Below are positions 10,589 to 60,700 of a stretch of 64,000 bases of DNA, piece after piece (within the stretch, counting starts at the first letter, position 1; every line of letters starts with the position of its first letter). A model generated the notes under the pieces. It worked only from the letters and a program-made list of their open reading frames with translations. It searched no databases and was not told the origin of the DNA. Source of the stretch: a virus; IMG/VR virus record IMGVR_UViG_3300045988_093513, positions 4,841 to 68,840 of that record. The stretch is one strand, 5' to 3'. A program made the position numbers and the translations under genes.

Positions 10589-10799
10589 TCCCCTTTCTCT
10601 TTCCAGTATACTTATTAAGAACTCTTACAACGTCTGCTACTTCTTCGTTGTCTTCGATACCGAGCATCGTCAGAAGTCCACCGACCAATACCTGCGCAGC
10701 ATCGTTACCATCCACGTTGGTATCAAACGAGATGTACGCACTACCATCTTCTGCATCTTTCCACGTCACTGTTACTGTTTTAGTTGATGTATCCTTCAT
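10569..10799 (-). CDS. Hypothetical small protein
   Basis: 76-aa ORF. Confidence 0.4.
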   Translation of the reverse strand: MKDTSTKTVTVTWKDAEDGSAYISFDTNVDGNDAAQVLVGGLLTMLGIEDNEEVADVVRVLNKYTGKRKGNANTNE

Positions 10800-11040
10800 G
10801 TTTATGTTCTCCTTTGTTCTTAAATTCTTCTACCATATCAGCCATTGTTTCAAAGATTTTGGTAGCTTCTTCTTCTGTCATTTCGTATGTTGCCATCAGA
10901 GCAAGGAACAATGCAGTAGCAGTCACCGGCGTATCCACGTCAGAGTCTACTTTGATATCTACTCCCTGTTTAGAAAGCACAGCCTTTACCTTAATATTCA
11001 TTGTTGTTTCGTCTTTAAGTTTACTCGTTACGTTATCCAT
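10780..11040 (-). CDS. Hypothetical small protein
   Basis: 86-aa ORF. Confidence 0.4.
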   Translation of the reverse strand: MDNVTSKLKDETTMNIKVKAVLSKQGVDIKVDSDVDTPVTATALFLALMATYEMTEEEATKIFETMADMVEEFKNKGEHKHEGYIN

Positions 11041-11041
11041 T

Positions 11042-40685: not shown

Positions 40686-41141
40686 TTAGATGGTTGCTAC
40701 GTACTGTTTGAACAGTTTGCCTTCTGGCATATCTGGGTCATCCCAATAGAGGGCTTTAGCTACTGCGATATACTTTTCTGGGTCTTTGCCTAAGACGTTA
40801 GAGAGGTCACTATACAGCATGTTAATCGCGTAATACAAATCCGCAGGATGTTCAATGTTACGTTTCTTCGCTTCCTCCTCCACTTCTGCAAACGTCCAGT
40901 GCGGGCCAGTAGTACCATCAACGTTCTCCATGTGGGCTACCGCTTTGATGGCGATATCGTTATCAAAGTACGGGCCGCAATCCAGTTCGTGCAGTTTAAG
41001 CAGTAGATGTTTTGCCTTCGGGTCTGCGGTTTCCAAAGTAAGACTATCCAAGTATTCACAGATAGCATTATGCAATTCGCGAGTCTTCGTACCGTCCAAG
41101 GCGTCCGAAGACATGTCAAGATATTTCCTAGCAGTAAGCAT
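40686..41141 (-). CDS. Hypothetical protein
   Basis: 151 aa. Confidence 0.5.
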   Translation of the reverse strand: MLTARKYLDMSSDALDGTKTRELHNAICEYLDSLTLETADPKAKHLLLKLHELDCGPYFDNDIAIKAVAHMENVDGTTGPHWTFAEVEEEAKKRNIEHPADLYYAINMLYSDLSNVLGKDPEKYIAVAKALYWDDPDMPEGKLFKQYVATI

Positions 41142-42557: not shown

Positions 42558-43436
42558 TCACACTCCTTCTGCGGTAAAGAGTCCATCAATATCACCATCT
42601 GTTGCAGAGGCAATCACAAACGCGCCGCCGTAGTTATCCCAACCAATACCGTTCCATACTACGTTATCGCCAGCCTTAATCGGAGAACCGTTAGCATCAG
42701 TGCCACCTGCCGTAGTGATATTGTACATGTCGCCTGTTTTATTCTGTGCATCTGCAGGAAGGTCGGTAAATGCATCAACAATGCCACGATAGATGACGGC
42801 CTGAGAGATGTCAGACTTCTTAGCATAGTCGGTCAGCGTAGTGGTCAGAGAAGTCTTGGATACATAAGTGTTCGCGGCGTTGACCTTAGTTTCAAACGGA
42901 GTAACGTCAATAGTACCCTGTACTGCACTAAGTACCCCATCTACCATCTGCAAGTTAGCGCCAACTTTAATACCACCAGATGTAGTAGCGGATGCTACTG
43001 GCAGTATATATTTATTAGCGCCAACTGCTACCCCAGCCAGCTTGGTTTTTTCAGCAGAGGTGAAATCCTCTGTAGACAACTGCTTACCTTCTGCTTTGTC
43101 AACCTTTGTAGCGAGGTCGGTAGCGGCAGAAGCCTTAGTGTAATACTTGCCATCAGCAGTTGCAGTCTTCTGGTACGCAGACAGGTCAACAGACATTACA
43201 CCTTCTGCACTAATAGCAACATTATCGCCACTCTTAACGCCACCAAGTGTAGTAGAATCTGCGGTCGGGAGCACGTACAAGTTTGCACCCGTGGCGATAC
43301 CAGCCAGCTTAGTCTTCTCGGCAGTGGTGTAGTTGTTATCGGAAAGAACTTTAGTACCGTCTTTCTGCACAAAGATTTCCTTAGACTTCTCAAGGAAACG
43401 AGCCATTTGTGGGAGTTTAACAAATTTATCTTCCAT
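42558..43436 (-). CDS. Tail fibre protein with phage tail-fibre repeats
   Basis: Duplicated 'YTTAEKTKLAGIATGAN' / 'FTSAEKTKLAGVAVGAN' units match the phage fibre repeat (..EKtKLdgI..gAn.Y). Confidence 0.7.
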   Translation of the reverse strand: MEDKFVKLPQMARFLEKSKEIFVQKDGTKVLSDNNYTTAEKTKLAGIATGANLYVLPTADSTTLGGVKSGDNVAISAEGVMSVDLSAYQKTATADGKYYTKASAATDLATKVDKAEGKQLSTEDFTSAEKTKLAGVAVGANKYILPVASATTSGGIKVGANLQMVDGVLSAVQGTIDVTPFETKVNAANTYVSKTSLTTTLTDYAKKSDISQAVIYRGIVDAFTDLPADAQNKTGDMYNITTAGGTDANGSPIKAGDNVVWNGIGWDNYGGAFVIASATDGDIDGLFTAEGV

Positions 43437-44947
43437 TAAATTTTCCTTTCAGCAAACAGTAAGTCAATGTCATCGTTAGTCGCGACATTGTTTGTGATAT
43501 CATCAACATACTTAATAATAGTAGAGTTGTTCTGAACAACTTTATTGTCAGTGTAACTAGTGGCACGGGTATACCCTTCAATGTCACCCGTCTCTCTATT
43601 CTGAACTTCGGTGTCCAACCTATCAGACAACGCCGTATCGGAAGCCTGTAGATTATCAACCTGTGTTCTGATGTTGGCGTTAATCTCATCGTCAGATGCC
43701 TTACGAGTGTTAATCTCGCTAGTAAGGTTACTGGAGAGTTCGCCAATCTTTTTGGTGACATTAGCGGCTACGTTAGCATCGTTGCCAAGAGCGTCAGCTA
43801 GTTCCTTCAAGGTGTCAAGTGCTTCTGGGGCACCGCCTACCAGACTAGCAACCTTCTGGTCTGTATACAGTTTAGCAGTAGACAGAGACTCGGCAACTTT
43901 ATCAGATACCTGAGCAGAAGTGTCTGCACCCATCTCAGCCAGAGTGATATCTTTCTCCGTGTTGTCGAGATACAGTACATGTAATGCACCTTTAGTTTCA
44001 CCCGTCAGTTCCTTCGGTGGGTTCTGCAGGTTGTTCAACTTAGATGCCAAATCGTTAGCAGTGTTTGTTGCAGTTGTAACAGCTGCATCAACTCTCTTGG
44101 CATCAGCCTTGGCGTTTTCCATGTACGCTTCTGTGGTCTTCTCAGATTCTTTCGCAGCTTTCTGCGAAGCACTAGCGGCGTTCATGTAGTCCTGAGTGTT
44201 CTGTTCGGAAGCCTGAGCCCTACGCAGCAGTTCTGCCACGTCGTTCTTCATGTTGGACACGTCCGTCTCGTTATCCTTGATACCCTTCAAAGTATCAATG
44301 GCTTCCTGCACTTTCTTCTTGGAGTACAAAGCCCAAGAGCGAGAGGATTGCGTTAGTCCAGTAGGAGATTCAAAGTCTGGCTCTCTGTCTGGGGTTGTTT
44401 CAGATACCGCCCATGCCTCAGCTTTATTGACACTGCGTTCGATATCAACCATTGCATCGTCATGCGCAGTCTTGATTTGTTCAAGAGAGTAGGTACGCAC
44501 CTTATGAATTTTATCTTCAGCGTCACGTTCCCACTGGTCGATATTAGCTTTAGCCTGTGTCAGCAAAGAGTTGAATGTACTGGTCATGTACGTCATCTTT
44601 TCAGAGACCAGCGTGTTGATAGTGTTTACACCAGACGTACTAGCACTCTGTGTATCCTGTAGTGCTTGCTGTGCCTTCTCCGCATTTGTCTTTGTGGAGG
44701 CTTCGAGTTTCGTTACGTTCGCTTCAGAGGCTTGAATCTTTTTATAAGTAGAGTCAATGCCATCCTTGATGGAAGTAACGTCACCAAGTGCGGCACCAGC
44801 GTCCTGCGTCTTACCGTCATCATACGTAACGATAAGATGGGCTTGTTTATCTAATGCTACACTGGAGATACCGATACCACGTTCCCCTTTCTGTCCGTAA
44901 CGTAACGTTACTTTGACAGGAGAACTGGATACAGTTACATGATTCAC
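43436..44947 (-). CDS. Fibrous coiled-coil tail fibre/needle protein
   Basis: 503 aa, mostly heptad-like, located between fibre genes. Confidence 0.55.
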   Translation of the reverse strand: MNHVTVSSSPVKVTLRYGQKGERGIGISSVALDKQAHLIVTYDDGKTQDAGAALGDVTSIKDGIDSTYKKIQASEANVTKLEASTKTNAEKAQQALQDTQSASTSGVNTINTLVSEKMTYMTSTFNSLLTQAKANIDQWERDAEDKIHKVRTYSLEQIKTAHDDAMVDIERSVNKAEAWAVSETTPDREPDFESPTGLTQSSRSWALYSKKKVQEAIDTLKGIKDNETDVSNMKNDVAELLRRAQASEQNTQDYMNAASASQKAAKESEKTTEAYMENAKADAKRVDAAVTTATNTANDLASKLNNLQNPPKELTGETKGALHVLYLDNTEKDITLAEMGADTSAQVSDKVAESLSTAKLYTDQKVASLVGGAPEALDTLKELADALGNDANVAANVTKKIGELSSNLTSEINTRKASDDEINANIRTQVDNLQASDTALSDRLDTEVQNRETGDIEGYTRATSYTDNKVVQNNSTIIKYVDDITNNVATNDDIDLLFAERKI

Positions 44948-45348
44948 ATGCTACCTCCTTGAGAAATACCTGGGGAAATGAATGCTTTACCGTTACAGAT
45001 TCGTTTAACGTCGTGTCCGTCAAACATATTAACGTCCCAATAAAGCTCTTCCCATTCTTTATAAGAATTACCACCAGTATCAATGGAAGCAGTTTCTTCC
45101 GCACTCAGTGATAAATTAACAATACCATTTTTAGGGTCTACATCTACCTGATGCATCTTTGCAATAACCGTGGTATCCTCGGCTGACGCTTTTACACTAG
45201 CGTAAAACTTGTAATCACTAATATCAATAGGTGTATCCTTTTCTCCCTCAAGGAGTTCAAACTGAATATCAAAGTCTGCCCCCTGAGCGATAACGATATC
45301 AACTACTGGTACTAGCGGTGTTGCATTGTCACAGTTATGTCTGAGCAT
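44944..45348 (-). CDS. Hypothetical protein
   Basis: 134 aa. Confidence 0.45.
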   Translation of the reverse strand: MLRHNCDNATPLVPVVDIVIAQGADFDIQFELLEGEKDTPIDISDYKFYASVKASAEDTTVIAKMHQVDVDPKNGIVNLSLSAEETASIDTGGNSYKEWEELYWDVNMFDGHDVKRICNGKAFISPGISQGGSM

Positions 45349-46283
45349 TGTTCACCTCCATAATTTTTATACAAAGTGTCTATCACTCCTCCGTAATAGG
45401 CGCGTACAATCGGGCATCTACGTAAGGTTGCTTCGTCAGACATTAACGAGCATCCACCGCCACAGAACCTAAGCATATCGCATTTTGCACACATGCCCTG
45501 CTGTCTTTTAATTGTCTTATCCCATTCGCGAGAATATTCGCTTGGCTTACTCTCGTCATGGCAATTATACAAACTCCCATCTAGGTCTATATTGATAACT
45601 GTAGTTCCGTTACCGCACTTGTTGCCATAATCATATTGCCCTGTTAGTTGATACAGAGTTGAGAATATCATCGATGCTTCTGGTACTGTTGCCGTACCGT
45701 TAATGAACCTTTCTGTACAGGTACACATGTCTTTGTACAACTGGTCAACATCGACTTCCTCGAACTCCAACTGACTACTCGTAAAATTCAGAGGGAAATC
45801 AAAGTTCAAGCTAAACTCTTTATCTGGTAACAGCTCGCTTACGCGATTGATTACATCATGTACGACCGTCCATTTTGTTAGCACTGCCGAGATGCATAAG
45901 TTGTCAACGTCTTTAATGTTTGGGTTCTCTTGAAGAACATCGTATCCTCTGGTTTTCTTACTAATTGGTCCATCCCAAGATACAGTTACACCGACATCAT
46001 ACTTATTCAGCCATTCTACTTTATCTTTATCTAGTAACTTACCGTTCGTTATAATGCCGTAACATAAATCAGAACGGTGAGACATGATTTCTTTAATGGC
46101 ACCAAAGTACAACAGAGGCTCCCCGCCAAAAAATACGACAGGTGTTTTCGGCGGTATGGAATGGAAGTATTCCCAGAACCTTGGTTTAATAGCTCTCGGG
46201 ATTTGTCTTTCTTTAATCTGTCTCTGACAACAGTATGTACATTGTAAGTTGCAATCATTCCCTAGAATTACGAACAGTTTCAT
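45312..46283 (-). CDS. Radical SAM enzyme with a C-terminal SPASM/twitch domain
   Basis: 'CNLQCTYC' (Cx3Cx2C), 'FFGGEPLLY', and C-terminal 'CAKCDMLRFCGGGC' (Cx2Cx5Cx3C). Confidence 0.8.
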   Translation of the reverse strand: MKLFVILGNDCNLQCTYCCQRQIKERQIPRAIKPRFWEYFHSIPPKTPVVFFGGEPLLYFGAIKEIMSHRSDLCYGIITNGKLLDKDKVEWLNKYDVGVTVSWDGPISKKTRGYDVLQENPNIKDVDNLCISAVLTKWTVVHDVINRVSELLPDKEFSLNFDFPLNFTSSQLEFEEVDVDQLYKDMCTCTERFINGTATVPEASMIFSTLYQLTGQYDYGNKCGNGTTVINIDLDGSLYNCHDESKPSEYSREWDKTIKRQQGMCAKCDMLRFCGGGCSLMSDEATLRRCPIVRAYYGGVIDTLYKNYGGEQCSDITVTMQHR

Positions 46284-47430
46284 ACGTCTTACCTACGCAA
46301 GCTGTAACAACTTCGCCACCCTGAATATTAAGGACGGTACGAATCAAATCCATGATATAATCTGTTGCAAACAAGAACGTTACCGCTTCCAGTGGAATAC
46401 CAACGGCTGCAAAAATAATTGCACAATCCATGAGCGTCCCGCCGATAATACCTGGAGCACACATCAAAGCTACAGTGGTTAATAACAATACCGTTACAAT
46501 CGCCGCTACGCTTAGAGGTACTCCAAAGATGGATGAGGCGTACATAACATATACACCCACGCAGACACACGAACCGACACGCATCAATACAGAAACGATA
46601 GGGGTGAGGTAATCAATCACTTCATGTGGAATGTCTGTATCTTTTTTCAATAATACGATACGATTTCCGATAGTATTGGATGCGCCACCAGCAATAGCGT
46701 TAGCAACGTCCTCTACAAAGATAGCTCTCAGGAACGATGCCCCATCTACTTTGTGCAAGTAAAGGACGGGAAGTGACGCAAGTAAAGTAAACAATACAAC
46801 CCCAACAATCAGTGTACCAAACATGCATACATAACTCTGTAATACGCCAAGACCAAATTTAACCACAACAGGGTACAGCAATGCGAATACTCCAACAGGT
46901 GCGATATACATGATGCAGTTAGCAATTTTCAGAAAGACGTGCTGGATAATACCAAGGGCGTGTGCGATAGAACTCTTATATGCACTTGTCCGCCCAACTA
47001 AACCTACCATGATTGCTAACGTTACAATCTGTAACATGTTACCCGTCGCAAACGAGTGAACAATATTGACAGGGATACAGCCGTTGATGAACGACAGCAC
47101 TGTAGGAGCCTGTACAGCGACCGTATTTGTTGCGGTTACGACAAACGTAGGTACACCAATTACCCACGTTAATCCTAACCCTAACGCGACACCAATTACA
47201 CTCAAGCCAAACATTAAGATAAAGGCGTGTACCGATACCTTTTGTCCATCATGCATATCGATAATCGCTTTCGCGATAGACGCAAATGCTAACGGAACAA
47301 CACACACCTTGAGTAACGACGTAAACATAGTGCCCAATTCTTTGAGGGGGTACTGTAACCACGCGACATCTCCAAACACAAGCCCTAAACAAAGTGCTAA
47401 CGCAATAGAGATTGCAATATTCCTATACAT
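46255..47430 (-). CDS. Polytopic membrane protein, DAACS/SDF-family symporter-like
   Basis: About 8-10 predicted TM helices. C-terminal 'GIPLEAVTFLFATDYIMDLIRTVLNIQGGEVVTACV' matches the GltP-family lGlP...D.i.Dm.rT.vNvtGd motif. The 'IAPVGVFALL' motif is present; NMDGT is not. Confidence 0.55.
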   Translation of the reverse strand: MYRNIAISIALALCLGLVFGDVAWLQYPLKELGTMFTSLLKVCVVPLAFASIAKAIIDMHDGQKVSVHAFILMFGLSVIGVALGLGLTWVIGVPTFVVTATNTVAVQAPTVLSFINGCIPVNIVHSFATGNMLQIVTLAIMVGLVGRTSAYKSSIAHALGIIQHVFLKIANCIMYIAPVGVFALLYPVVVKFGLGVLQSYVCMFGTLIVGVVLFTLLASLPVLYLHKVDGASFLRAIFVEDVANAIAGGASNTIGNRIVLLKKDTDIPHEVIDYLTPIVSVLMRVGSCVCVGVYVMYASSIFGVPLSVAAIVTVLLLTTVALMCAPGIIGGTLMDCAIIFAAVGIPLEAVTFLFATDYIMDLIRTVLNIQGGEVVTACVGKTYETVRNSRE

Positions 47431-47438
47431 GTATCCTC

Positions 47439-48425
47439 CTATAAATCTAACGCTTGCGCAACGTCACTCCACAATAACTTTGGGTTTTCGAGCCCAATAG
47501 AAAGTCTAGCACAGAACCCTTGCGGATACCGTTCCTTACTTCTGAAGAAATCAGCGATAGAGTAAGTGCACCCGAAAGTTCCAACAGTCTTAAACTGTTT
47601 CAATCGCTTGCAGAACTCTTCTGTTTTTCCTGGTAGTGTAATTAAGCCACCACATCCAGGCCACAAGCAATCTACACCAGCTTCCTTGAGATTATCATAA
47701 ATGTATGCTGCGCCATCTGTGTGCATAATCATTCTGCACGCCAATGTCTGCAACCCACGACTAACCATGTACGCTTTATCTGGAGATACGCAGTTACCAC
47801 GATGGGCGATAACCCACGACAAGTTATCCTGTCCTGGGTTTGCGAGTGGAACTGGCTTCTGTTCTAACCATCGCATGGTATCGGCAAAACATAAACCACC
47901 TGCCACTACATCGCCATAACCGCACACATATTTAGTATAAGACTCAATACATACATCGGCTCCATTCTTAATTGGATTCGAGTAATGGAGAGACACGATT
48001 GAGTTGTCTACCGCCAAGATACCGTTATAACGATGAGTTGTATCCGCCAGTGTTTGTACGTCATACCACTTAGCAAATGTTGTTGGGTTATCAATGATTA
48101 CTAACACAGTTCCTTTAGAGGTGGCTAGAACGATTTCTAGGTCAGGCAACTGACCGACATCTTTTAATTGAACGGTATTGATATTCTTATAGTGCAACCA
48201 ATCACGTGTTTCAAAATATGTTTCGTCGTCGACAATAACTACATCTGGTTGCAAAATATCTAGGAGGGTTACAATAGCCTCCTGACCACTGTTACACAAA
48301 ACTGTACGCCATCCTCCATAGAGTTTTGTCAGTTCCTCTTCCACCTGCCTAATAGGCATGTTGTGTGTTCTTACATATCGTCCAGTATTGTCACTAACGA
48401 CGTTCATGTCAATAGTTGGTAACAT
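47439..48425 (-). CDS. Cys/Met-metabolism PLP-dependent enzyme (cystathionine gamma-synthase/beta-lyase family), N-terminally short
   Basis: 'LCNSGQEAI' (SGM/QAAI), PLP-lysine motif 'ESYTKYVCGYGDVVAGG' (SxTKYxxGHxD), and C-terminal 'RLSIGLE'. Confidence 0.7.
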   Translation of the reverse strand: MLPTIDMNVVSDNTGRYVRTHNMPIRQVEEELTKLYGGWRTVLCNSGQEAIVTLLDILQPDVVIVDDETYFETRDWLHYKNINTVQLKDVGQLPDLEIVLATSKGTVLVIIDNPTTFAKWYDVQTLADTTHRYNGILAVDNSIVSLHYSNPIKNGADVCIESYTKYVCGYGDVVAGGLCFADTMRWLEQKPVPLANPGQDNLSWVIAHRGNCVSPDKAYMVSRGLQTLACRMIMHTDGAAYIYDNLKEAGVDCLWPGCGGLITLPGKTEEFCKRLKQFKTVGTFGCTYSIADFFRSKERYPQGFCARLSIGLENPKLLWSDVAQALDL

Positions 48426-48433
48426 ACATTCTC

Positions 48434-49396
48434 CTATTCAATTCCATAATCGGCTTTGTCTACTTTGTCAAAGTTGGGGTAGTTGTCAAGTAATGCATTA
48501 AACCATTTCTCTAGTTTGTTTGTAGTAGTTGTCGACAAATAAAACTCCTCGGCATGACCACTAGCGTTAGACGTGAATCTTCCACTATACAACTGCCCGC
48601 TACCCCATACAAATATGGTATACAATGTAGCATACTTCTCATTAACTGTACGTAAATATTGTTTTATTTGATAATTAACATACGCTCTGGGCATGTACTT
48701 TTTGAAGGTATCGCCATAGCGCATTTTAATTTCACAGTTCGAGCAAACACCACATTGCTGTGGTAATGTTGTACAGCATGTTCTACACAGCGGGATTAAA
48801 TCATCATACCCCCATTCGTGCAACGCCTGTAGCTCGTCGATAGCATTGATATGTACCATACAGAATTTCATGTTACCGAATATGGTATACATATCTTTGT
48901 TCCCGTCTTTGTCTAATGTAAGTGTACCGTCATCTGCAATTTTGATGCCATAACTTGTAATGGCTTCCTCCGTCTTGCCGATGTTGTTTGACCTGGTGTT
49001 TGGAGGCGGTGCCTCTATCCCAATCATAATACCTGGATATCGTTTTGCAAGTTTACCAAGTGAACGATACATATAATGTTTAGAAAGAATATCTTCGCTA
49101 TACATGTGCTCATATGCACTTTCAAACTCCGCGTCTTGTGGAATATCTTCCTCTTTAATTTGAATCGGTTTTAGAATTGTGGCGGTGATACCGTCCTCTG
49201 CACGTATGAGTGGTAGCAAGTTGTTCTGCGCACTCATTTCTAGGTCTGCTGCTCCTCTTTCGCTTGTCTCTGGGAAAATAATATACACAGGTTGTATTTG
49301 TTCCGCAGTGTTTCTCGCCGTTTTACATAGCAGATAAGTACTGTCTAACCCACCTGACCAATATATATATTGCATTATAACCTCCTCAACAGTCAC
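48434..49396 (-). CDS. PP-loop ATP pyrophosphatase, QueC-like, with a ~90-aa C-terminal extension
   Basis: 'YIYWSGGLDSTYLL' (SGGxDS PP-loop) and 'CRTCC...CGVCSNCEIKMRYG', a QueC-type zinc cluster (CGxCxxCxxR). Confidence 0.65.
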   Translation of the reverse strand: MTVEEVIMQYIYWSGGLDSTYLLCKTARNTAEQIQPVYIIFPETSERGAADLEMSAQNNLLPLIRAEDGITATILKPIQIKEEDIPQDAEFESAYEHMYSEDILSKHYMYRSLGKLAKRYPGIMIGIEAPPPNTRSNNIGKTEEAITSYGIKIADDGTLTLDKDGNKDMYTIFGNMKFCMVHINAIDELQALHEWGYDDLIPLCRTCCTTLPQQCGVCSNCEIKMRYGDTFKKYMPRAYVNYQIKQYLRTVNEKYATLYTIFVWGSGQLYSGRFTSNASGHAEEFYLSTTTTNKLEKWFNALLDNYPNFDKVDKADYGIE

Positions 49397-51344
49397 AATT
49401 GCAGTTTATAAAACCAGTAACAGTGCTATGTGTTGCGCCCAAGGAGAATGTAACGGATTTTCTTAACAATGTGTTAATAATATCTTGAAGCGTATATGTT
49501 CCGTTCTGAAACATAGGAGTAACATCCAGTTGATTCCACGCTACCCCGCGACTGAGTCCGTCAGGGTGTCTATTATCACTGCGAAAATTAGCAGTAATAA
49601 CATACCCTGGATTGGTCTGCCCGTCTAGTGTATATGGAGCTCCCAGACCTCCACTACCATAGACCGCACCATTTACATTCAAATCCCCATTGATAGTAAC
49701 ACCATTATTAAAACTAGTAGCACCAGCAAAATACGCGCTACCGTTTTCATTGTCAATCCATGCTTTGTTTTCTTTTCCAACGCCATTAAAGTATGTCCTT
49801 TTACCCCTTAACACAAGACCATAAGTTTCTGAGCCGTTATCCTGCCACGTTTCTTTTCCAACACTTGGGTTTTCTGTGGTGCTATCATTGACCGTAAACA
49901 CGATTTTGTTTGCGTTAATCTCTCCAGTTGTACTAATTGTGCCATTACTAATAATACGGTTCGCTGTAATCATACCGTCAGCCCCATCTGTCGGGGACAT
50001 GTTCATGTATGTTAGCGTACTAACATCAGCCGTCCCTAACGTAGCATCAACTGCATTGACAGTGTCAGCAGTGAAGTCACGGATAGAACCGCTATCTGCA
50101 CTCAACTCTTTTGCTTTAATTCGATTAGACTCTACGGCATCGGCTACGATAGTGTCGTTGATAGTAAGAGAGTCTACCTCGATAGTATCACTATGTAAAG
50201 ACTTTGTGTTAATCTCGTTAGTAGTAATATCTTTGCTTGTTATCCTATTACTATGAATATCTATGAACGTATTTAAGTCAGAATGCCGTGGATTACTTAC
50301 ATCAACAGCTACGGAAGTAGAGTGATTGGACTCACCAATACAGTCGAAGTACGTTAAACTAATAGTGTCGTGTTCTTTCGTTGTGTAATAGGTGAAGGAA
50401 TGTTGGGTATTATCAACTGTAAACTTCACATTATTAACATAGATATTAGTACCAAGTCCATACGTAGGAGCTTTGAACTCAACTATAATTTTGTACTGGT
50501 CTTCGTTATCGTTAGTATCAACTTTTACCGTCGGAGCTTCTGGTGTGGTTAGCTGGGGGAACGAGTAAGCAGACTCGAGAGACGTAGAATATTTCTCGCT
50601 AATACCGAAGTTCGCTGCATAGATTGTCCCGTTACGCTCTTTAGGTACATACAAGTAAGACTTGCCACGAGACCTAGTTAGTAACCCGTCATCAACGCCG
50701 AAGTTATTATTACCATCACGTAACTCTGTGTACGTGTAGAAAGCGTTTGGCTGCTGTGTCCATTCGATTAGAAGACCTTTTGCAGTCGCTGCAGTGGTCA
50801 ACGACGCTGGCGGTGTCGTATCTCTAACTTGTACTGGAATGAATGTAATGGCACTAGGTGCTTTACTTTCCTCAGAACGTTTACCATCATCGGTCACACC
50901 GATGGCTACAACTCTATAACGATAGCCTGGCAATACGTTAGGAATCGTAGCGGTCAGTGCGCCATCCTTTGACTGGTAGATACGTGACCCCACCTGATTC
51001 CAATTTACGGATGCGTTACCCTTCTGAGGAGCTTGCTGGAGATTTAACAGAGCGTATTTATAGACACGAGCTTCGTTAAAGCTACCAGTTTCCCACGTAA
51101 CCGTAAGGTTATAATAGTCTCCAGATTTCTCGTAAGTTATTTTAACGTTCGATAATTGGTTACTGATGGTAGTTACAGTGGTTCCATCTCCACCGCCACC
51201 ACTTCCGCTACCTGTACCTGCATACGTTGCGATATAATTTAACGACTTGCGCACAGCATCGGCAAACTTACGACCATCACCTTGGGAGTCTGTTGGAATA
51301 GCGGCTACAAGGCGAGCCGCTTTCTTGTTAAAGTCCGTTGCCAT
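49386..51344 (-). CDS. Receptor-binding/tail fibre protein with Ig/FN3-like central region
   Basis: 652 aa with a Gly-rich hinge (GTGSGSGGGGDG) and beta-rich repeats; located in the fibre region. Confidence 0.55.
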   Translation of the reverse strand: MATDFNKKAARLVAAIPTDSQGDGRKFADAVRKSLNYIATYAGTGSGSGGGGDGTTVTTISNQLSNVKITYEKSGDYYNLTVTWETGSFNEARVYKYALLNLQQAPQKGNASVNWNQVGSRIYQSKDGALTATIPNVLPGYRYRVVAIGVTDDGKRSEESKAPSAITFIPVQVRDTTPPASLTTAATAKGLLIEWTQQPNAFYTYTELRDGNNNFGVDDGLLTRSRGKSYLYVPKERNGTIYAANFGISEKYSTSLESAYSFPQLTTPEAPTVKVDTNDNEDQYKIIVEFKAPTYGLGTNIYVNNVKFTVDNTQHSFTYYTTKEHDTISLTYFDCIGESNHSTSVAVDVSNPRHSDLNTFIDIHSNRITSKDITTNEINTKSLHSDTIEVDSLTINDTIVADAVESNRIKAKELSADSGSIRDFTADTVNAVDATLGTADVSTLTYMNMSPTDGADGMITANRIISNGTISTTGEINANKIVFTVNDSTTENPSVGKETWQDNGSETYGLVLRGKRTYFNGVGKENKAWIDNENGSAYFAGATSFNNGVTINGDLNVNGAVYGSGGLGAPYTLDGQTNPGYVITANFRSDNRHPDGLSRGVAWNQLDVTPMFQNGTYTLQDIINTLLRKSVTFSLGATHSTVTGFINCNCDC

Positions 51345-53254: not shown

Positions 53255-54216
53255 TTACGGCGCAACGGTTGGAGTAATAGTCTCCACGACAACTGGTTTC
53301 GGGTTAACCTTACCAGTCAGGTTCTTAATACGAGCGTTAGCATTCGGTGCGGTACATTCGATAGATGCTACGCCAGTGATTACCTTTTCCTTATAAGTAC
53401 CGACTCTCGGCGGTTCTTCAGTATGGAACGGAATAAGGTAGCCAAGTTTCCAATACTGCGGGTCGAGCAGGTCAACCACATCGTCAGAGTACATACGATG
53501 GGCTTCCAGACGAAGAGAACCAAAGTCAGTCTCGATGATTTCGAGAGAGGTGGTGATACTCTTGTCACCTGCCTGGCGAATCGGCAGTGCACCCTGAGTA
53601 AAGTCGGCGCATCCACGCTTATTACGTGCGGACATAATAGCGACGGACGGGTCGCCACCACGCTGCCAGGTCAGCTGCATTGCGTCATTCAGAAGGTCGA
53701 AAGTAAGGTTGCCCTTAGCAACGTCCTTCGCTGCGTCAATGCAGTTCTGGAATGTGATGGAGCCCATCTTAGTTTCTTTAACTTTACCTTCACCGCTGGA
53801 AACACCATGACCATTTGCGTCATACTTGACGGAGTTCATAGCGCCTTCCGGAGTGTCATACAGATAGAACGTATTAGCGTCCTTAACTGCTACGTAGTAG
53901 GCAACGTTTTCTTTACATACAGCACCACCACGAACGATGAGGGCATCGCCGTTTACAAAGCCGTGGTCGTTCAGAGTGAACTCACCAAAAGCTACGGTTA
54001 CACCTTTCAGTTCATCTTCAAGGAAGTACGGAATACCACCAAAAGTACCAGCAACGTTTTCAGACATCGGGGTTGCAGTGGTGTTGTTTACGATAGCATA
54101 TTCAAGGTCACCTGCGATTTCCTTGCCAGCCTTAACGAACTGGTACGCTACTTCGTCACGAACACCGTACTTTTTGATAGCCTGAGTGATATCAGAGATG
54201 TTATCGTTTGTGTTAA
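53255..54216 (-). CDS. Major capsid protein, 3' exon (the frame continues upstream of the annotated Met with no start codon)
   Basis: The in-frame upstream sequence 'VNTNDNISDITQAIKKYGVRDEVAYQFVKAGKEIAGDLEYAIVNNTTATP' precedes MSEN, and there is no ATG or RBS. A TGA lies at 54218-54220. The gene sits after the scaffold gene in a portal-scaffold-capsid order. Confidence 0.6.
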
Positions 54217-54972
54217 CTCATACTTTCATATGAGACCAGACTATATTATACTTAATCGGTGTTATCGTATAGTCGTTGGGATTTCATACGCTTTTCACAG
54301 TAATTATTTAACCTTTTCTGTTTACGTAAAATATTGAACTTTAGTCCAGATTCTATAAATGACTTTAGGTTCATAGTGAAACTCAGTTGTACTTTGTTTT
54401 TGGTTCGTATTTCTCTTGTCTTACCACACGATACACCAAAGGATTGTAGCATCCTTTTTATATCGTATGTCCAAGAGTATGTAGTTCCGTACCCCATCAT
54501 CCAATTTGTATTACCATTTGGATTGGCACGCTGTGAGACCCAACCATCAGAATCAAGTACACCTTCTAAAAATTCTTTCTTTAACTCTTTGTCCCATTGA
54601 TACACATAGTCTGGGATGTATCTACATCCAGCTGTGTCATCAACGAATATCTTAAATTCTTTAGAACATACTTGAAGATAGTATTTGTTAGTCCCTACCC
54701 TTTGGTGGACTTTCACATCTCTATTGATAAAACGTGATAAGTAATCAGCAACTTTACCAATAAACTCTTTATCAATACATTCAAATGAGTATGCGTACGT
54801 GTTCCCTCTTTTGAAAACACTAGCATCTCCAAAGTAACAACCAAGTAAATAAGCGTATGTCTTATCTGCGGGTTTCCTATTCATAATACATATCCTTTCT
54901 ATTTTTACACTTTGGTAAGAAGGGCTTTAAGGGTTTCCTGCATATGGATAACTTTTATATGGGCAAACATTT
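54217..54972 (-). mobile_element. Putative group I intron interrupting the capsid gene (boundaries approximate)
   Basis: Proposed 5' exon ends in U after ...CATGGG; proposed intron ends in G before TTAACACAAAC. It carries a free-standing LAGLIDADG ORF. Confidence 0.5.
54252..54884 (-). CDS. LAGLIDADG homing endonuclease (double-motif), intron-encoded
   Basis: Motif 1 'AYLLGCYFGDASV' and motif 2 'FLEGVLDSDGWVS'. Confidence 0.8.
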   Translation of the reverse strand: MNRKPADKTYAYLLGCYFGDASVFKRGNTYAYSFECIDKEFIGKVADYLSRFINRDVKVHQRVGTNKYYLQVCSKEFKIFVDDTAGCRYIPDYVYQWDKELKKEFLEGVLDSDGWVSQRANPNGNTNWMMGYGTTYSWTYDIKRMLQSFGVSCGKTREIRTKNKVQLSFTMNLKSFIESGLKFNILRKQKRLNNYCEKRMKSQRLYDNTD

Positions 54973-56789: not shown

Positions 56790-56865
56790 TGGCACGGATT
56801 GCTAGAATCGAACTAGCGAATTGCTGGGTCAAAGCCAGCCGCCTTCACCACTTGGCTAAACCCGT
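56790..56865 (-). tRNA. tRNA-Gln (anticodon UUG), with CCA encoded
   Basis: Hand-folded cloverleaf. Acceptor stem ACGGGTT/AATCCGT has one G.U pair. U8 and A9 are present. D-arm is GCC-aagtggtgaa-GGC with G18/G19. Anticodon stem is GCTGG/CCAGC with loop CTTTGAC. T-arm is GCTAG-TTCGATT-CTAGC. Discriminator is G, then CCA. Confidence 0.8.
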
Positions 56866-56886: not shown

Positions 56887-57723
56887 CTACCTATTATTCT
56901 GGTTGTATGCACGCAATGCATTAAATCCACGGATAAGTGGGTCGTGTTCATCGTGATATGCAGACGGGTTTGCATCCCTGTATGTCTGAGCATCAAGCTG
57001 ATAATAGTCAGCAGGGCTAGGCTGTGCATAAGCGTTATCCATAGCGTAGTAGTCTGCTACGGAATTACCTGGCATATCGAAGCCTTCAGAAGAACCAGTG
57101 GAACCAGAGTCATCTGGTACACCAAGCGCCATAGCATCCTGAGCAGCTGCCGGTCCATAGTTCTGCCGCATAGCAGCTTCATACTCCATCTGCTTACGAA
57201 GTTTTTCTCTTTCATACGCTTCATACTGAGCCTGTGTATGGTCGATACCACCATTGTTTACAAGGTATTCATGCATACCCCAGTTCATCGGTGTCTTATC
57301 ACGGTTAGCAATTTGTTCGTCTGTCCATCCTGCGTCTTTCATAAGCTGAATACCTCTATCGTTGATAGTATCGCCAGTATTAGCATATGTCAGCGGTGCA
57401 TTAGGTGTACCAGAAGGTAAATTACGTGTAGCAAATTCATAAGAACCGGCCTTAGGTGTCGGCTTCAGCTGACTACCGTTATCGATAGCTGCCTGCCCAC
57501 GGTTAGCGGACCGTACCCAAGCGTTACTATCATCACGGGTCGGTGCCATAAACCTATTACGAATACGTTCACGCTCTTTGTCATATTCAGACATGGGAGC
57601 GTTTTCCTGTGCAGTTGGCGTACTGCCATGAATCTGATTGTAAACATCTGTGAGAGCTTTAGCTGCTTCATATCTTTGAACATCCGCCTGTCGAGGGATA
57701 CTCCTCGTATACTTAATTGCCAT
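56887..57723 (-). CDS. Hypothetical head protein (between the portal and scaffold genes)
   Basis: 278 aa; start overlaps the portal stop. Confidence 0.55.
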   Translation of the reverse strand: MAIKYTRSIPRQADVQRYEAAKALTDVYNQIHGSTPTAQENAPMSEYDKERERIRNRFMAPTRDDSNAWVRSANRGQAAIDNGSQLKPTPKAGSYEFATRNLPSGTPNAPLTYANTGDTINDRGIQLMKDAGWTDEQIANRDKTPMNWGMHEYLVNNGGIDHTQAQYEAYEREKLRKQMEYEAAMRQNYGPAAAQDAMALGVPDDSGSTGSSEGFDMPGNSVADYYAMDNAYAQPSPADYYQLDAQTYRDANPSAYHDEHDPLIRGFNALRAYNQNNR

Positions 57724-60700
57724 TAATAACCTCCTACTCCATTAGTCGGTTCAGCAGGTGCGCCATTAGGAACCCTATTATCGGCTGGCTGCTGACCAAT
57801 TTGTTTGTCTGGAGAGAGGGCGTCACTACCTTGTCGCACAGTAGAAGTGACCGCTCCTCCTGCTCCTTGTGGTGCAGATACATTCTGCATAGGAACCGTA
57901 CTCTGACCAGTGTTGTTTGTATTTGTTGGTAACGTATGATTCAAGAATACTACCTGCACATAGGGGGGGAGTGAGTAGAGAACCTGAATCGGTAACGAGC
58001 CATACTGGAAGTAGTAAGCCACAACATCAGGGGGGAGAGTCTGAAGTGTTGCCTGAATGATTTGTGCTTCAAGCATAGTACGCTGTTGCGCAACAACAGG
58101 GTCAGTAATATAGTCACCTGTATTTTTAATACCCATATTTTCCATCCAACGTTTCGTGATGTTATAAATGTTATGTGGAGTTGCAACCGCAACACCAGTA
58201 GCGTTTACTTGCATGATAGCAGTCATGAGCGTCTGAAGCTGGGTATTCATAGCTTCTTTACTCTGGATGGAGAGACCAGCGTTTACAACCAGATCGAAAG
58301 AGCCAGACAAGTCATCTGGTTTGATTTCCATTGGTTCCCCTGTTAATCGAATAACAGTGTTTTGGTCAATAAACTTTTGGTTCAAAGATATAAGAAAACG
58401 ATATAGTTCATATACACCCGTTTCAGCAAACATACGAGCAATAAGTTCCAGTCGCTGATTAGATGCATTCATGATGGTATTGATACCGCTTGCTGTGTTA
58501 TGTGTTACGGTATAGTGTTTGCCTACGCAGAACTGACCATCTTCGGCATCAACAGTTAAACACCGCATTGGAATAATATCGGTCGGTTCGATTAATACTA
58601 TTTTAACCCTATCAACACTACGTTTAGACTGTACATACTTGTTTGCTTTTCGGCTTAATCTAAATGGATTATCGAGGCAACTAATAGTTAAATGCCAATA
58701 TGTACGACCTTCTTTAGCTAACTTGCCAGGGAATTGCTCTGACTTAGAATAATTCCAGCCAAAGGAACAAATCAAGCGTTCTACATCGTCCAATAACTGC
58801 CCGTTTGCTTGAGAGAAAATAGCCAACGAACCAGAATGGTGACAACCATCAGTGTCCATAAGTCCACGAAGAAGTTCCATACGCTGTCTATAAGAAGCAC
58901 TAAAGAAAATCTCCGGTATGTGTTTACAGTTATCTTTCATGTCGTCGTATCTTGCATCGCGGGCAATGTGTAGTTTTCTAAGGATGGTGTGCAAGTCTGT
59001 GCCAACTATGTCATACGTAATAGCCTTTCCTGCGTTTTGGTGTGAAGACGGTCTGATAAAACCACCTCTGAACTTTGCCCATTCGGACATGGCGTCCACT
59101 ATTTCTTTATCCATTGAGGTAAAGCGATTGGTGTGTAAGCAGCCGTCGCCCAAGAACACACCGAGGATATACGGGTCTATTGGTAATTCAATATCACCGT
59201 TGTTATCAGGACGGTATACCCTGTCAATAAACAATGGCTGTTTATACTTGTGCGCCAACTGGAACAAAGTGTCGGTATCAATGGTTTTACGTTTCCTATG
59301 AGGGCCAAACACTGTCCACAAATGTTCTCCGCCCGCTTTAAGGACTTCGCCGTTAGAGAACTTGATTTCATATGCTCGTTCTGGGTCATGAATAGTATGG
59401 GCTTTAATAACCATGGTCGGTTTACCATTCTGCCCAACAATCATATCACCGTCAACAATGTCTTTTAACAGCTTACTGGAACCGTTGGCCATCGGGACAG
59501 GCGTATTGATGTCTAGCATTTTATTCAAACTGGAAGCATCAAGACCTTGGTTATATCGCGTGACGCCTGTACGCTGTTCCTTCTGTCCCTCAGTCCATTC
59601 GAGAAAGTTGAACGTATAAGGAGCAATCTGGTTGACAGGCATAGACATTGCAACGTCATTCATCTGATACCCTGGCTTCTTACGAATGACGGCACGACCT
59701 TTGTTGAAGTCATCAACATTGATTGCGTCTGGTGCCAGAATCATCTTAGGGTCATTCGTCAGTGCTAGGTTGTGGATAATCTGACGAATCAGTGCCACCT
59801 TCAAATTCTGGATTTCACCAACGAGTTCGGCATAAGAACGCTTAGACCAAATACGGTGTGGGTCTTGTGTCGGGGAAATAGCGAAGAATGGATGTCTACC
59901 CATATAGTTTGGTTCGCAACGAAGGATATGGTCTTGGCACAGTGTGATAATCATATCCTCAAGGATACCATCACCATTAATATCAATTTTCGTATAACAC
60001 TCGTACAGAGTAACCTCTTCACGGGCTTCTTCTGCGGCAGAGTGGAAACCATAGTATTGATCGCCAAGCACCTCTTCCATTTCTGTATCAGCTTCATCGA
60101 GTCCGTATTTTGAGTGCCAATGCTCTGACTTTATCTCATCAACGTTAGCATATACGCCCTGTCGTTCCATCTTTCTGAGGTAAGACATAGTAACCCGTTT
60201 CTTATGAGCAACAAAGTTTGCTTCATCAAGAGTTTTTGCGTCTGGCGAATACAAGAAATCAGAAATAAGAATGTTCTCAATCTTTGGAGCATTCTTCAAA
60301 TAAAACGTGGAGTCGTAAATAACAGTATAATCGCCATACTTATCGGGGGCAGAGATAGATTCGACCTTTACACCAGTGTTAATCAGGGCTTGTAAGCTCT
60401 GAAAGTTGAGAACACACTGTACAGGTTCATAGCCCTCCTCTCTGTCCCAGTAACATTTAACAACACCAAGACCAGTAATGAGTGCATCTTTCATCCAATT
60501 ATACAGAATCGGGTAGAAATGGTTCTGTCTCTGTAACTGGAAAGAAATAAGGTCTTGCATAATCTCTGCGTTATGGTCATCCTGCGCATCTACACCAGAG
60601 ATACTGATTACACTCTCCCCGCCGGTAAATACCTTCATGAGCGATGGCAATGCCCATTCAATAGTATCTGTTACATCGGTAGATACTATAGATGATGTTT

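Follow-up and report, generated by a model that had tools for sequence, protein, structure and literature searches.

Several described enzyme systems resemble parts of the locus studied here. The thioether maturases CteB and PapB, of the SCIFF and ranthipeptide RiPPs, are radical SAM enzymes with a SPASM domain that act on small secreted peptides, and PapB joins Cys to the carbon adjacent to an Asp/Glu or C-terminal carboxylate residue (PMC12373016). The related enzyme anSME is an RRE-less SPASM protein that acts on full-length proteins, where Cys/Ser is oxidized to formylglycine in a C/S-x-P-x-R motif. The PP-loop scaffold of QueC recurs in Cap9 (type IV CBASS) and QatC, and these enzymes are accompanied by QueD/QueE, CD-NTase/Cap10 and QatABD, respectively. 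Cap9 is a QueC-family enzyme which conjugates a carboxylate to a protein. In the thioamide-forming YcfA–YcfC pair, a PP-loop enzyme and a PLP-dependent C–S lyase together with free cysteine make a thio-nucleotide, 6-thioguanine being the modified base and GTP the substrate (PMC12494993). For the remaining two activities considered below, the nearest described proteins are the methionine/cystathionine gamma-lyases and the aspartate transporters GltPh/GltTk.

Here we describe a four-gene island, located in the late fibre operon of a SU10-like gut phage of ~70 kb, in which relatives of these enzymes occur together. At about even odds (a probability of roughly 0.5), the island would be a cassette for RiPP-like maturation of the upstream fibre's tip, with two modules that can be separated, both in the same late operon; this reading is based on gene neighbourhood and homology throughout. 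The system is widespread among phages and seemingly undescribed, and the literature searched contained no phage pathway with this gene set, in line with what a first-pass annotation of the DNA had stated.

Organization of the locus

The window, i.e. the whole 64,000-nt stretch of phage DNA that was analysed, contains the following features.

49386..51344, minus strand: fibre-like structural protein, 652 aa, with a conserved first ~570 aa, a variable region and a C-terminal module
49389..49514, minus strand: C-terminal module of the 652-aa fibre protein, residues 611-652
49464-49499, minus strand: leader-like motif TYTLQDIINTLL in the 652-aa fibre
49389-49403, minus strand: Cys core C-N-C-D-C, the last five residues of the 652-aa fibre
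48434..49375, minus strand: QueC-like PP-loop ATPase, 313 aa, with SGGLDS, a Cys4 Zn-type site and a novel C-terminal domain
47439..48425, minus strand: gamma-family (Cys/Met metabolism) PLP enzyme, 328 aa, PF01053
46255..47430, minus strand: SDF/DAACS-family membrane transporter, 391 aa, PF00375
45312..46283, minus strand: radical SAM/SPASM enzyme (putative maturase), 323 aa, PF04055 and TIGR04085, no RRE domain
44944..45348, minus strand: LtfC-like fibre-assembly protein in the same operon, bounding the variable cassette site on its downstream side
43436..44947, minus strand: second fibre protein, 503 aa, in a co-transcribed context, with matches to tail-fibre PHROGs

An ORF check showed that the four minus-strand island genes are real and tightly coupled. 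They lie where the first-pass annotation had placed them, with the exception of the PP-loop start, which was moved from 49396 to 49375 (313 aa). This correction follows from the N-termini of the homologues, all of which begin MQYIYW or MRYILW, and from the junction sequence ...NCNCDC TGA GGAGG ttata ATG, in which a strong Shine-Dalgarno sequence stands in front of an ATG 10 nt past the fibre stop. The PP-loop start is thus translationally coupled to the fibre stop. Throughout the island the genes are separated by 8-nt gaps or overlap by 29-37 nt, with 37 nt shared between the LtfC-like and radical SAM genes. Sites resembling promoters or terminators were no more frequent than in shuffled sequence, and the GC content of the island did not differ from that of its flanks.

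The 49386-51344 product gave no family match in the searches; it is a conserved fibre-like protein encoded after the adaptor genes. The site between this fibre gene and the LtfC-like gene is variable. The phage looks virulent, since the window encodes replication genes of its own (a DnaE-type polymerase, a primase-helicase and RNR).

The radical SAM enzyme and the Cys-tailed fibre

The four domain calls of the first-pass annotation were all reproduced (PF04055 with TIGR04085, PF00375, PF01053, and the SGGLDS/CGVCSNC motifs of the PP-loop protein). The radical SAM enzyme scores 36 bits against PF04055 (cut-off 29.5) and 30.8 bits against the NCBIfam SPASM model TIGR04085 (cut-off 27). Its cluster motif CX3CX2C corresponds to C11/C15/C18 and its SPASM Cx2Cx5Cx3C motif to C265-C278, and the seven SPASM cysteines (C223, C241, C265, C268, C274, C278 and C290), which account for two auxiliary clusters, are invariant across 27 homologues. 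The closest solved structure to the enzyme's profile is the thioether maturase CteB (E 7e-32), followed by an unnamed 472-aa radical SAM protein (8vpo) and by anSME (E 4e-22), and the top NCBIfam match is the ranthipeptide maturase PapB (NF047865, E 1e-21). Still, at 77.5 bits against a curated cut-off of 340 it is no PapB equivalog, and it scores far below the cut-off of every curated family, so that its reaction type is an extrapolation. The enzyme falls in a peptide/protein-maturase clade, and the earlier statement that it is not a QueE is supported.

The phage enzyme shares with CteB and PapB both the CX3CX2C motif and the full seven-Cys SPASM set, and it likewise adjoins a Cys-rich partner with Asp/Asn/Gln beside Cys. 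It differs from them in its presumed substrate, the tail at the C-terminus of a virion fibre of 652 aa rather than a small secreted peptide, in the motif, CxCxC or CQxC rather than CX3D/E, and in the absence of an N-terminal RRE domain, as only 10 residues precede the cluster motif and the profile alignment to CteB begins at CteB residue 100. In its size and its lack of an RRE it is similar to anSME, although the C/S-x-P-x-R motif is absent in the phage case.

The 652-aa fibre ends in TYTLQDIINTLL, followed by ~20 aa and CNCDC-stop (tail TYTLQDII...CNCDC), and it is the sole ORF of 463 in the window with a CxCxC end. Proteins encoded beside radical SAM homologues, though unrelated in other respects, terminate in the motif G-TY[TS]L-x-x-[IV][IL]-x-x-L ... 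C[ND]C[ND]C. The radical SAM family comprises >400 relatives/loci in IMG/VR. A same-strand ORF with a Cys-rich C-terminal tail was found ≤3.5 kb from the radical SAM gene in 63/77 fetched loci, an association with an odds ratio of 6.9 (p 1e-38 vs all other ORFs, where the relatedness of many of the 77 loci makes the p-values overstate independence). Similarly, among fibre homologues across SU10-like phages the radical SAM gene was present in the locus of 6/6 with a Cys tail and 0/17 without, and one further fibre relative is accompanied by a radical SAM gene and separate small Cys-rich proteins at the same site (p ~5e-5). The first-pass annotation had ascribed no structural role to the island genes. 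This is not supported: the clade of the radical SAM enzyme tracks the Cys-rich C-terminal tails of fibre-like proteins, one of them being the upstream fibre.

Taken from these homologies and neighbourhoods, the radical SAM enzyme probably acts on the Cys tail of the fibre, and a thioether is a plausible product, at somewhat less than even odds. The enzyme would recognize the fibre tail directly, without an RRE, as anSME does, and would install a thioether from Cys-S to a carbon of the neighbouring Asn/Asp or C-terminal residue in the manner of CteB/PapB; such stapling could render the fibre tip resistant to reduction and protease.

Metal or cluster binding is known for fibre and tail-tip proteins, for example the HxH-iron sites of T4 gp37 and the Fe-S cluster of lambda gpL. 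The window tail has only three Cys, and its CxC motifs could, in a trimeric fibre, just bind metal. The tail might accordingly do no more than bind metal or an Fe-S cluster at the tip of the trimer, with the island made up of unrelated morons gathered at a permissive site, as the variability of the fibre–LtfC site would allow. We consider this highly improbable, as the radical SAM gene is strictly tied to Cys-rich partners in many types of phage and many gene orders, the island genes overlap or are tightly coupled, and all four genes are found together in no fewer than four different gene orders and phage backgrounds.

The PP-loop ATPase, PLP enzyme and transporter

The PP-loop protein carries SGGLDS and C-x7-CGVCSNC motifs, and C200, C208, C211 and C214 form an invariant Cys4 Zn-type site. 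It has no match to the QueC models PF06508/TIGR00364 among Pfam or NCBIfam hits at E≤0.01, and its profile reaches QueC in the PDB at E 0.059. Cap9 and QueC are its closest structures, with YcfA among the structural matches. It differs from QueC, Cap9 and QatC in sequence (13-18% identity) and in an extra C-terminal domain of ~95 aa; this domain, seen already in the first-pass annotation, has a confident predicted fold (residues ~219-313) that matches no known fold and bears no similarity to peptide-binding RRE domains. The partners differ as well, being a PLP enzyme and a transporter, and neither CD-NTase with Cap10 nor QatA/B/D was found in any neighbourhood looked at. Likewise, a Pfam scan of 38 window proteins, which left about a dozen small ORFs outside, found no partner gene for deazaguanine or DNA modification (TGT/DpdA, QueD, QueE or FolE), and none of these was found in the related loci.

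The PLP enzyme matches PF01053 at E 3e-34 (118.6 bits, cut-off 27). Residues Y17-x-R19, S46-G47, Y70, D140, S162-Y-T-K165 and R307-L-S are invariant in its family, SYTK carrying the catalytic lysine. The enzyme lacks ~40 N-terminal residues of canonical members and has a shortened C-terminal domain, with all catalytic residues retained. Its family is discrete, with about 73 clusters at ≥39% identity and the next at 29%, and it occurs solely in these cassettes. The closest relatives are the methionine and cystathionine gamma-lyases, which share all the catalytic residues, although characterized gamma-family members have ≤29% identity to it. Against the named equivalogs (CGS, CBL, CGL and MGL) the best score is 100.6 bits, where the cut-offs are 440-730, and MGL, CGL and an Ala/Glu racemase score alike.

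The transporter matches PF00375 over its full length (E 5e-51, 174 bits). The D, D, R, T and N of its TM8 align with D390, D394, R397, T398 and N401 of GltPh, so that the substrate-binding Asp, Arg, Thr and Asn of GltPh/GltTk are shared. It differs from those transporters in the loss of the Na+-coupling residues (MRVGS for NMDGT and G for D405) and in a conserved Arg at the M311 position, and it is found in phages and conjugative elements. It retains the Arg responsible for selecting acidic side chains, a better fit to Asp/Glu than to cysteine, which weakens a simple sulfur-donor model.

A portable module beside fibrous adhesins

The island consists of two modules, the radical SAM enzyme and the PP-loop–PLP–SDF trio. 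The trio is a portable unit, and every phage context in which it was seen also has a radical SAM enzyme and a Cys tail. Conversely, most radical SAM/Cys-tail phages do without it (7 trio loci vs >400 radical SAM loci in IMG/VR). In the sister phage L016, an unrelated cassette of X270, rSAM2 and X225 takes the position of the trio, and the fibre tail reads ...CNCNCCDGCGDDAGY in place of ...CNCDC. As the first-pass annotation had stated, the island lies among fibre genes, and it is exchangeable. Distinct tails adjoining the X270/rSAM2/X225 cassette have a 'DD' extension in 47/53 cases, and those adjoining the trio end 0-2 residues past the last Cys in 17/19. The presence of the trio in phages thus co-varies with the form of the fibre extreme C-terminus.

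The trio was also found, in the same gene order, in bacterial conjugative T4SS operons (>20 loci), where it is always directly followed by a trimeric autotransporter adhesin (YadA-anchor/SLH) and no radical SAM gene is present. The first-pass annotation had named a known host operon acquired wholesale, with matching synteny in bacterial chromosomes, as an observation that would refute its reading. This applies in part: the trio shows such synteny, yet it corresponds to no known host operon. In both settings it travels with fibrous adhesin genes, i.e. phage fibres or the T4SS trimeric autotransporter adhesin. The T4SS-linked adhesins have no Cys-rich tail, and therefore the trio cannot need one and may act on something besides the fibre. 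From its gene neighbours, modification of the fibre or adhesin protein itself by the trio is a tentative assignment, with odds nearer one in three than one in two.

Three other roles for the trio have to be weighed against this distribution. It could serve to modify the receptor or envelope and move together with the adhesin/RBP gene to which it belongs, while the radical SAM enzyme matures the fibre tail independently; an amino acid would be imported or converted and then ligated or amidated onto a cell-envelope precursor. Such a cassette might exclude superinfection or entry, protect progeny from debris or remodel the cell wall. Receptor-blocking genes are known to adjoin RBP genes, such as T5 llp next to pb5, and the trio adjoins an adhesin/RBP gene in two unrelated mobile machineries. 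One of its members is an integral membrane protein, and the Cys tail is absent from the T4SS adhesins. The T4SS hosts resemble diderm Firmicutes (YadA anchor and SLH), the peptidoglycan of which carries amine modifications on carboxyl groups, and PP-loop enzymes of the Asn-synthetase type amidate peptidoglycan carboxylates. Envelope modification is nevertheless unlikely, as the island is part of the late structural operon in a virulent-looking phage, with translational coupling to the fibre gene, all phage contexts seen place the trio within the radical SAM/Cys-tail system, and the extreme C-terminus of the fibre co-varies with its presence.

The first-pass annotation proposed a self-contained pathway to a modified base, nucleoside or small metabolite. 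Candidate products are thio- or amino-purines, a deazapurine of non-canonical type or a compound like 6-thioguanine, derived from an imported amino acid. For a PP-loop enzyme and a PLP C–S lyase that share an O-to-S or amide-forming step, YcfA–YcfC provides a real precedent (PMC12494993), and the QueC-like PP-loop protein, the YcfA structural match and a transporter suggestive of an imported precursor are all in keeping with such a pathway. YcfC is however C-DES/cysteine-desulfurase-like (class V), in contrast to the gamma-family PF01053 enzyme of the phage, and the YcfA–YcfC pair lacks a transporter, a radical SAM enzyme and an adhesin context; it is an analogy and not a case of membership. 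A single nucleoside or metabolite pathway is decidedly unlikely given the lack of TGT/DpdA, QueD, QueE and FolE in the scanned window proteins, the silence of the QueC Pfam model, the placing of the radical SAM enzyme in a peptide-maturase clade tied to Cys-rich tails, the co-variation of the fibre tail with the trio, and the occurrence of the trio beside adhesins in T4SS operons, a context unrelated to phage DNA. The island looks like a system for fibre-tip finishing rather than such a pathway.

The trio might instead be a supply line, in which import and cleavage of cystine or cystathionine yield cysteine or sulfide for Cys-rich proteins or for the three [4Fe-4S] clusters of the radical SAM enzyme. 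The retention by the transporter of residues that fit an amino acid carrying a distal carboxylate, the affinity of the PLP enzyme to methionine/cystathionine gamma-lyases and the constant presence of the radical SAM gene beside the trio in phages would suit this role. It appears very unlikely all the same, as T4SS loci have the trio without a radical SAM gene or Cys-rich protein, >400 radical SAM phage loci do without the trio, the window tail offers just three Cys, and the PP-loop ATPase would be left without a role.

Implications

Returning to maturation of the fibre tip, the trio could operate in three steps. The transporter would import an amino acid that has a further acidic group (Asp/Glu, or of the cystine/cystathionine type), which the gamma-family PLP enzyme would convert by C–S/C–O lyase, gamma-replacement or racemase chemistry. 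The QueC-like enzyme would then adenylate a carboxyl and attach an amino-acid-derived group (amide) or sulfur (thio-acid/thioamide) to the fibre or adhesin, the likeliest target site in the phage being at or beside the free ...CDC-COOH end.

A broader reading, which we put forward as speculative and rather unlikely in its entirety, would have phage fibres and some T4SS adhesins finished by RiPP-type enzymology: the radical SAM enzyme would staple the Cys core, and the QueC-family ligase, PLP enzyme and importer would add to the fibre a non-ribosomal cap, a thio, amide or D-amino acid group derived from an imported amino acid. If true, virion receptor-binding proteins would for the first time be seen to undergo post-translational 'natural-product' chemistry, and the QueC scaffold would gain a new function.

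The island forms part of a late tail-fibre operon

The four minus-strand open reading frames reported between two tail-fibre genes by the first-pass annotation are present, and the functional assignments proposed for all four are borne out by Pfam and NCBIfam matches and by sequence motifs. Gene content and the tight coupling of the genes are read directly from the DNA, and all conclusions drawn here are computational.

Genes of the operon, in operon order, followed by the sole tRNA gene
49386-51344, first fibre, 652 aa, with a Cys-rich C-terminus
48434-49375, minus strand, PP-loop (QueC-like) protein, SGGLDS and CGVCSNC motifs
47439-48425, minus strand, Cys/Met-metabolism PLP enzyme, PF01053, E 3e-34
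46255-47430, minus strand, SDF/DAACS transporter, PF00375, E 5e-51
45312-46283, minus strand, radical SAM/SPASM enzyme, CX3CX2C at residues 11-18, SPASM Cx2Cx5Cx3C at residues 265-278, PF04055, TIGR04085
44944-45348, LtfC-like assembly protein, same operon
43436-44947, second fibre, same operon
56790-56865, tRNA-Gln (anticodon UUG), between the portal and capsid regions

The PP-loop protein had no match in Pfam or NCBIfam, and a weak match to a PHROG annotated as QueC-like was the single hit. The start of its gene, originally set at 49396, moves to 49375, because all homologues begin with MQYIYW/MRYILW and because of the DNA at the fibre/PP-loop junction (...AAC TGC AAT TGT GAC TGT TGA GGAGG TTATA ATG). 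This start lies ten bases past the upstream fibre stop and is preceded by a strong ribosome-binding site. Elsewhere in the island, neighbouring genes are 8 nt apart or overlap by 29-37 nt, a scan for sigma-70 promoters and intrinsic terminators gave no signals above shuffled expectation, and the composition of the island is that of its flanks. Thus, the island lies within one late operon.

The window also encodes SU10-type portal, capsid and adaptor proteins, a DnaE-type polymerase, a primase-helicase, a class II ribonucleotide reductase, an SNF2 helicase and a GH25 lysin, and near-identical contigs of ~70 kb were found in human-gut metagenomes. Among 50,697 GenBank phage records, no match was obtained with the island DNA, in near and distant search modes, or with the PP-loop protein in a protein search. 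Scanning genome contigs with the PP-loop alignment returned no host operon and one locus, on a 70-kb contig binned as Lachnospiraceae that is probably the phage itself.

Several other genes of the window deserve mention. A 4034-aa open reading frame (20018-32122), upstream of an SLT transglycosylase gene (32140-33615), has no Pfam match and may encode a giant internal or ejection protein. The major capsid gene is apparently split (53255-54884, plus upstream to ~55300): the part at 53255-54067 matches the SU10_MCP profile at positions 152-292 only, with a free-standing LAGLIDADG endonuclease frame (54252-54884) just upstream. The relative L005 has the same layout of capsid part, LAGLIDADG and capsid part, and the arrangement suggests an intron with a homing endonuclease. 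Similarly, the portal (57723-60770) has 1015 aa against 593 positions in the SU10_portal profile and contains a LAGLIDADG_3 domain at residues 630-697, suggesting an intein or an in-frame homing-endonuclease insertion. Weak matches below the gathering score were seen for a 616-aa early protein (162-2012, Amidoligase_2, E 8e-4) and for 7739-8404 (ThyX-like, E 2e-4).

The radical SAM enzyme is associated with Cys-rich protein tails

The seven SPASM cysteines of the radical SAM enzyme are invariant in 27 homologues, and its family counts more than 400 relatives in IMG/VR. The best curated match was the ranthipeptide maturase PapB, at 77 bits and thus below the cut-off of 340. Compared with solved structures, the family profile was closest to the thioether maturase CteB (E 7e-32), followed by 8vpo, an unnamed 472-aa radical SAM protein, and by the sulfatase maturase anSME. 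The alignment with CteB starts past the leader-binding domain of the latter, a domain that the phage enzyme, unlike CteB, does not have.

The PP-loop family is small, with 22 clusters among 5.8 billion proteins, and when its neighbourhoods were viewed and the adjacent genes translated, a neighbour with a Cys-rich tail was seen in every case. The window fibre ends ...TYTLQDIINTLLRKSVTFSLGATHSTVTGFINCNCDC-stop, and it is the sole product ending in CxCxC among the 463 six-frame open reading frames of the 64-kb window. The 52%-identical relative in L005 ends ...CNCDCSD; a different phage type (L006) has a 406-aa protein with the C-terminus ...GNCDCNCNCDCD, and a third type (L003) has two small CQxC-repeat proteins ending ...CNCNCE and ...NCSYDC. 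A same-strand Cys-tail frame lay at most 3.5 kb from the radical SAM gene at 63 of the 77 fetched loci, and at 56 of the 77 a same-strand frame within 3.5 kb showed strict CxCxC among its final 16 residues. Relative to all other frames the enrichment was 6.9-fold in odds (p 1e-38, a value to be read with the shared ancestry of the 77 loci, not all of which are independent). Within the fibre family itself, a radical SAM gene was present in the locus of every homologue with a Cys tail (6/6) and of no homologue without one (0/17).

Upstream of the tails a conserved, helix-like motif, G-TY[TS]L-x-x-[IV][IL]-x-x-L, is found on carriers that are otherwise unrelated and range from 86 to 672 aa; judged by sequence, motif and tail together are a RiPP leader-plus-core layout grafted onto structural proteins. 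The association between enzyme and tail is directly observed; from this association and from the presence/absence pattern within the fibre family, we consider it likely, with a probability of roughly 70%, that the Cys-rich tail is a substrate of the radical SAM enzyme. By analogy with its closest relatives the product would be a thioether. It would also fit the Asn, Asp or Gln residues that flank each Cys. PapB joins Cys to the carbon beside Asp/Glu or a C-terminal carboxylate (PMC12373016).

Variants of the arrangement were seen elsewhere. The further relative L202 has a tail-less fibre and, at the same site, a radical SAM gene with two separate small Cys-rich proteins; this segment (10751-12492) brings the cassette variants seen at that position of the phage lineage to three, and the small proteins carry C-x3-C / GGC-type tails ending ...CDGCGGCDGAP and ...CTASCGGCSGAP. 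Two contigs of jumbo-phage size, 245 and 345 kb (L010 3481-9020; L011 5716-9284), have up to three radical SAM paralogues amid fibre-like genes, together with small Cys-tail proteins and a 160-aa protein consisting nearly entirely of CQSCQNTCTCQSDK repeats. The cultured Achromobacter phage JWF (L089 4670-8191) encodes a distant radical SAM relative of ~25% identity, which one record names a sulfatase-maturating enzyme. Its gene closes the tail-fibre module, at the border to lysis; two genes further upstream lies a gene of tail-fibre type that bears the annotation Hint family protein. As no Cys tail was found at the JWF locus, the association with such tails is limited to the closer clade.

Exchange of cassettes and the C-terminal end of the tail

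The PP-loop, PLP and transporter genes (the trio) always occur together and in constant order, as a module separable from the radical SAM gene. At least four arrangements were found in phages, and each, where flanks are visible, includes a radical SAM gene and a Cys tail.

Arrangements of the trio in phages
Arrangement 1: fibre (Cys tail), trio, radical SAM, LtfC
Arrangement 2: radical SAM, first Cys protein, second Cys protein, trio
Arrangement 3: Cys protein, radical SAM, trio, holin, lysin
Arrangement 4: prophage form of arrangement 3 in a 164-kb bacterial contig, with lysin and no holin match

A direct exchange is seen in the sister phage L016, which shares the fibre body, the LtfC gene and the second fibre with the window phage. 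The place of the trio is taken there by a cassette for two proteins of 270 and 225 aa and a second radical SAM enzyme, and the fibre of L016 ends ...CNCNCCDGCGDDAGY in place of ...CNCDC. Cassettes of this alternative type are common (L016 5633-7990; L020 9815-12663): besides the second radical SAM/SPASM enzyme they encode one protein of ~270 aa and one of ~225-260 aa. Its proteins in L016 and L020 matched no known family; L020 additionally has a Hint-domain protein (PF13403, E 3e-5, below the gathering score).

The co-variation of tail end and cassette is likewise a direct observation. Next to the alternative cassette, 47 of 53 distinct tails have a [SG]DD[SG]G-type extension of 4-8 residues past the last Cys; next to the trio, tails stop 0-2 residues past the last Cys (17/19), both exceptions coming from L091, a locus that holds both cassettes. 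Since the tail end tracks the cassette type, the trio is tied to the extreme C-terminus of the tail.

Other loci show related gene combinations. In the rumen-type contig L136 (5846-9601), fibre-like genes are followed by a 253-aa protein and by two PP-loop paralogues flanking a PLP gene, and the SDF gene is absent. The N-terminus of the 253-aa protein, judged by eye, resembles tetrapyrrole/diphthine-type methylases. Together with the PP-loop genes, this would be reminiscent of diphthamide synthesis, which combines a methylase with a PP-loop amidase. In L139 (1105-2787) the N-terminus of a tail protein runs in frame into the C-terminal part of the PLP enzyme, with the SDF gene alone behind it, and in L135 (1972-2970) a lone PLP gene lies between two autotransporter adhesin genes; both are decayed or minimal versions of the cassette. 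The C-terminal ~50 residues of the DUF7841 protein of the window (40686-41141) are near-identical to those of a gene of L003, a quite different phage type, where it directly follows the SDF gene (13161-13607), which points to a recent exchange among trio-bearing phages.

The trio in conjugative secretion operons

The trio also occurs inside conjugative type IV secretion (T4SS) operons, at more than 20 human-gut metagenome loci, surrounded by genes for VirB4, B8, B9, B10, VirD4 and TrbC. Loci that reach beyond the transporter gene have a trimeric autotransporter adhesin of 1400-1500 aa directly next, with YadA-anchor and SLH domains, an architecture that suggests diderm Firmicutes, presumably Negativicutes, as hosts. 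No radical SAM gene was found in the T4SS trio loci examined, and PLSDB plasmids gave no match to the T4SS-type PLP protein. The linkage of trio and adhesin is seen directly at these loci, and, being found with fibrous adhesins in two unrelated machineries, the trio is an autonomous unit.

Cys-rich tails are absent from the T4SS adhesins checked, which contain 0-3 Cys in the N-terminal ~140 residues. The trio therefore needs no Cys tail, and the Cys-less adhesins also fit the strongest rival explanation, namely that the target of the trio is the cell envelope or receptor, not the adhesin, and that the trio is co-inherited with the cognate adhesin gene. Against such a role speak the late-operon position in a virulent-looking phage and the co-variation of the tail end with the trio.

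Proposed modification pathway

The PLP enzyme retains all catalytic residues of the gamma family (Y17-x-R19, S46-G47, Y70, D140, SYTK165, R307) and belongs to a well-delimited family: about 73 clusters share at least 39% identity, after which identity falls to 29%. Methionine gamma-lyase, cystathionine gamma-lyase and Ala/Glu racemase gave like scores, so that the reaction type is not readable from sequence. The SDF transporter aligns end to end with aspartate transporters and retains the GltPh TM8 residues D394, R397, T398 and N401, which bind the amino group, alpha-carboxylate and acidic side chain. In contrast, the sodium site differs from that of GltPh (NMDGT to MRVGS, D405 to G). The predicted substrate is accordingly an amino acid that carries a second acidic group, and the coupling mode probably differs from that of GltPh. 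A wider QueC-like clade comprises 1070 representatives with weak QueC matches only, and at 48 viral loci with such relatives PLP, SDF and radical SAM partners occurred in none.

We propose that the radical SAM enzyme would staple the fibre tip through thioethers. A dicarboxylic amino acid, either Asp/Glu or one of the cystine/cystathionine type, would enter through the transporter and be converted by the PLP enzyme, and the QueC-like enzyme would adenylate a carboxyl group and attach the derived group, in the phage most likely to the free ...CDC-COOH end or close to it. There are two precedents for this attachment step: the QueC-family enzymes Cap9 and QatC are reported to couple a carboxylate to a protein amine, and in YcfA-YcfC a PP-loop enzyme, working with a PLP C-S lyase and free cysteine, can replace O by S (PMC12494993). 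The cap may be an amide, a thio group or a D-amino acid.

The first-pass annotation had favoured a modified nucleoside or small-metabolite pathway, which is unlikely; no partner gene for it was found among the 38 window proteins scanned, and it leaves both the T4SS context and the fibre co-variation unexplained. A supply of cysteine or Fe-S clusters by the trio fails, as it is contradicted by the T4SS trio loci and by the more than 400 radical SAM loci that have no trio.

Novelty and significance

Full-text literature searches, covering radical SAM enzymes with tail fibres or cysteine-rich proteins, ranthipeptides with phages, and QueC-like families, turned up no account of either module, be it the radical SAM/Cys-tail system of phage tail modules or the PP-loop/PLP/SDF trio. 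The early remark that no phage pathway with this gene set is known is upheld by these searches. In a 2026 survey of the QueC family, the terms looked for on PLP enzymes, on transporters, on radical SAM enzymes and on tails do not occur.

If the proposal is true, host recognition in a large group of gut phages would depend on enzymatic maturation of the fibre tip and not on fibre sequence alone; the radical SAM/Cys-tail pair is present at more than 400 IMG/VR loci. This would bear on host-range prediction and phage engineering, and fibres produced with no maturase present would be inactive. RiPP chemistry would reach large structural proteins, and thioether ligases that lack an RRE, with the compact recognition tag TYTLxDII...CNCDC, would be possible protein-stapling tools. 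A testable function would be gained for an uncharacterised QueC-like clade, together with new families of PLP enzyme and transporter, and the trio, as a common adhesin-associated pathway, would join phage adsorption and conjugative mating-pair formation.
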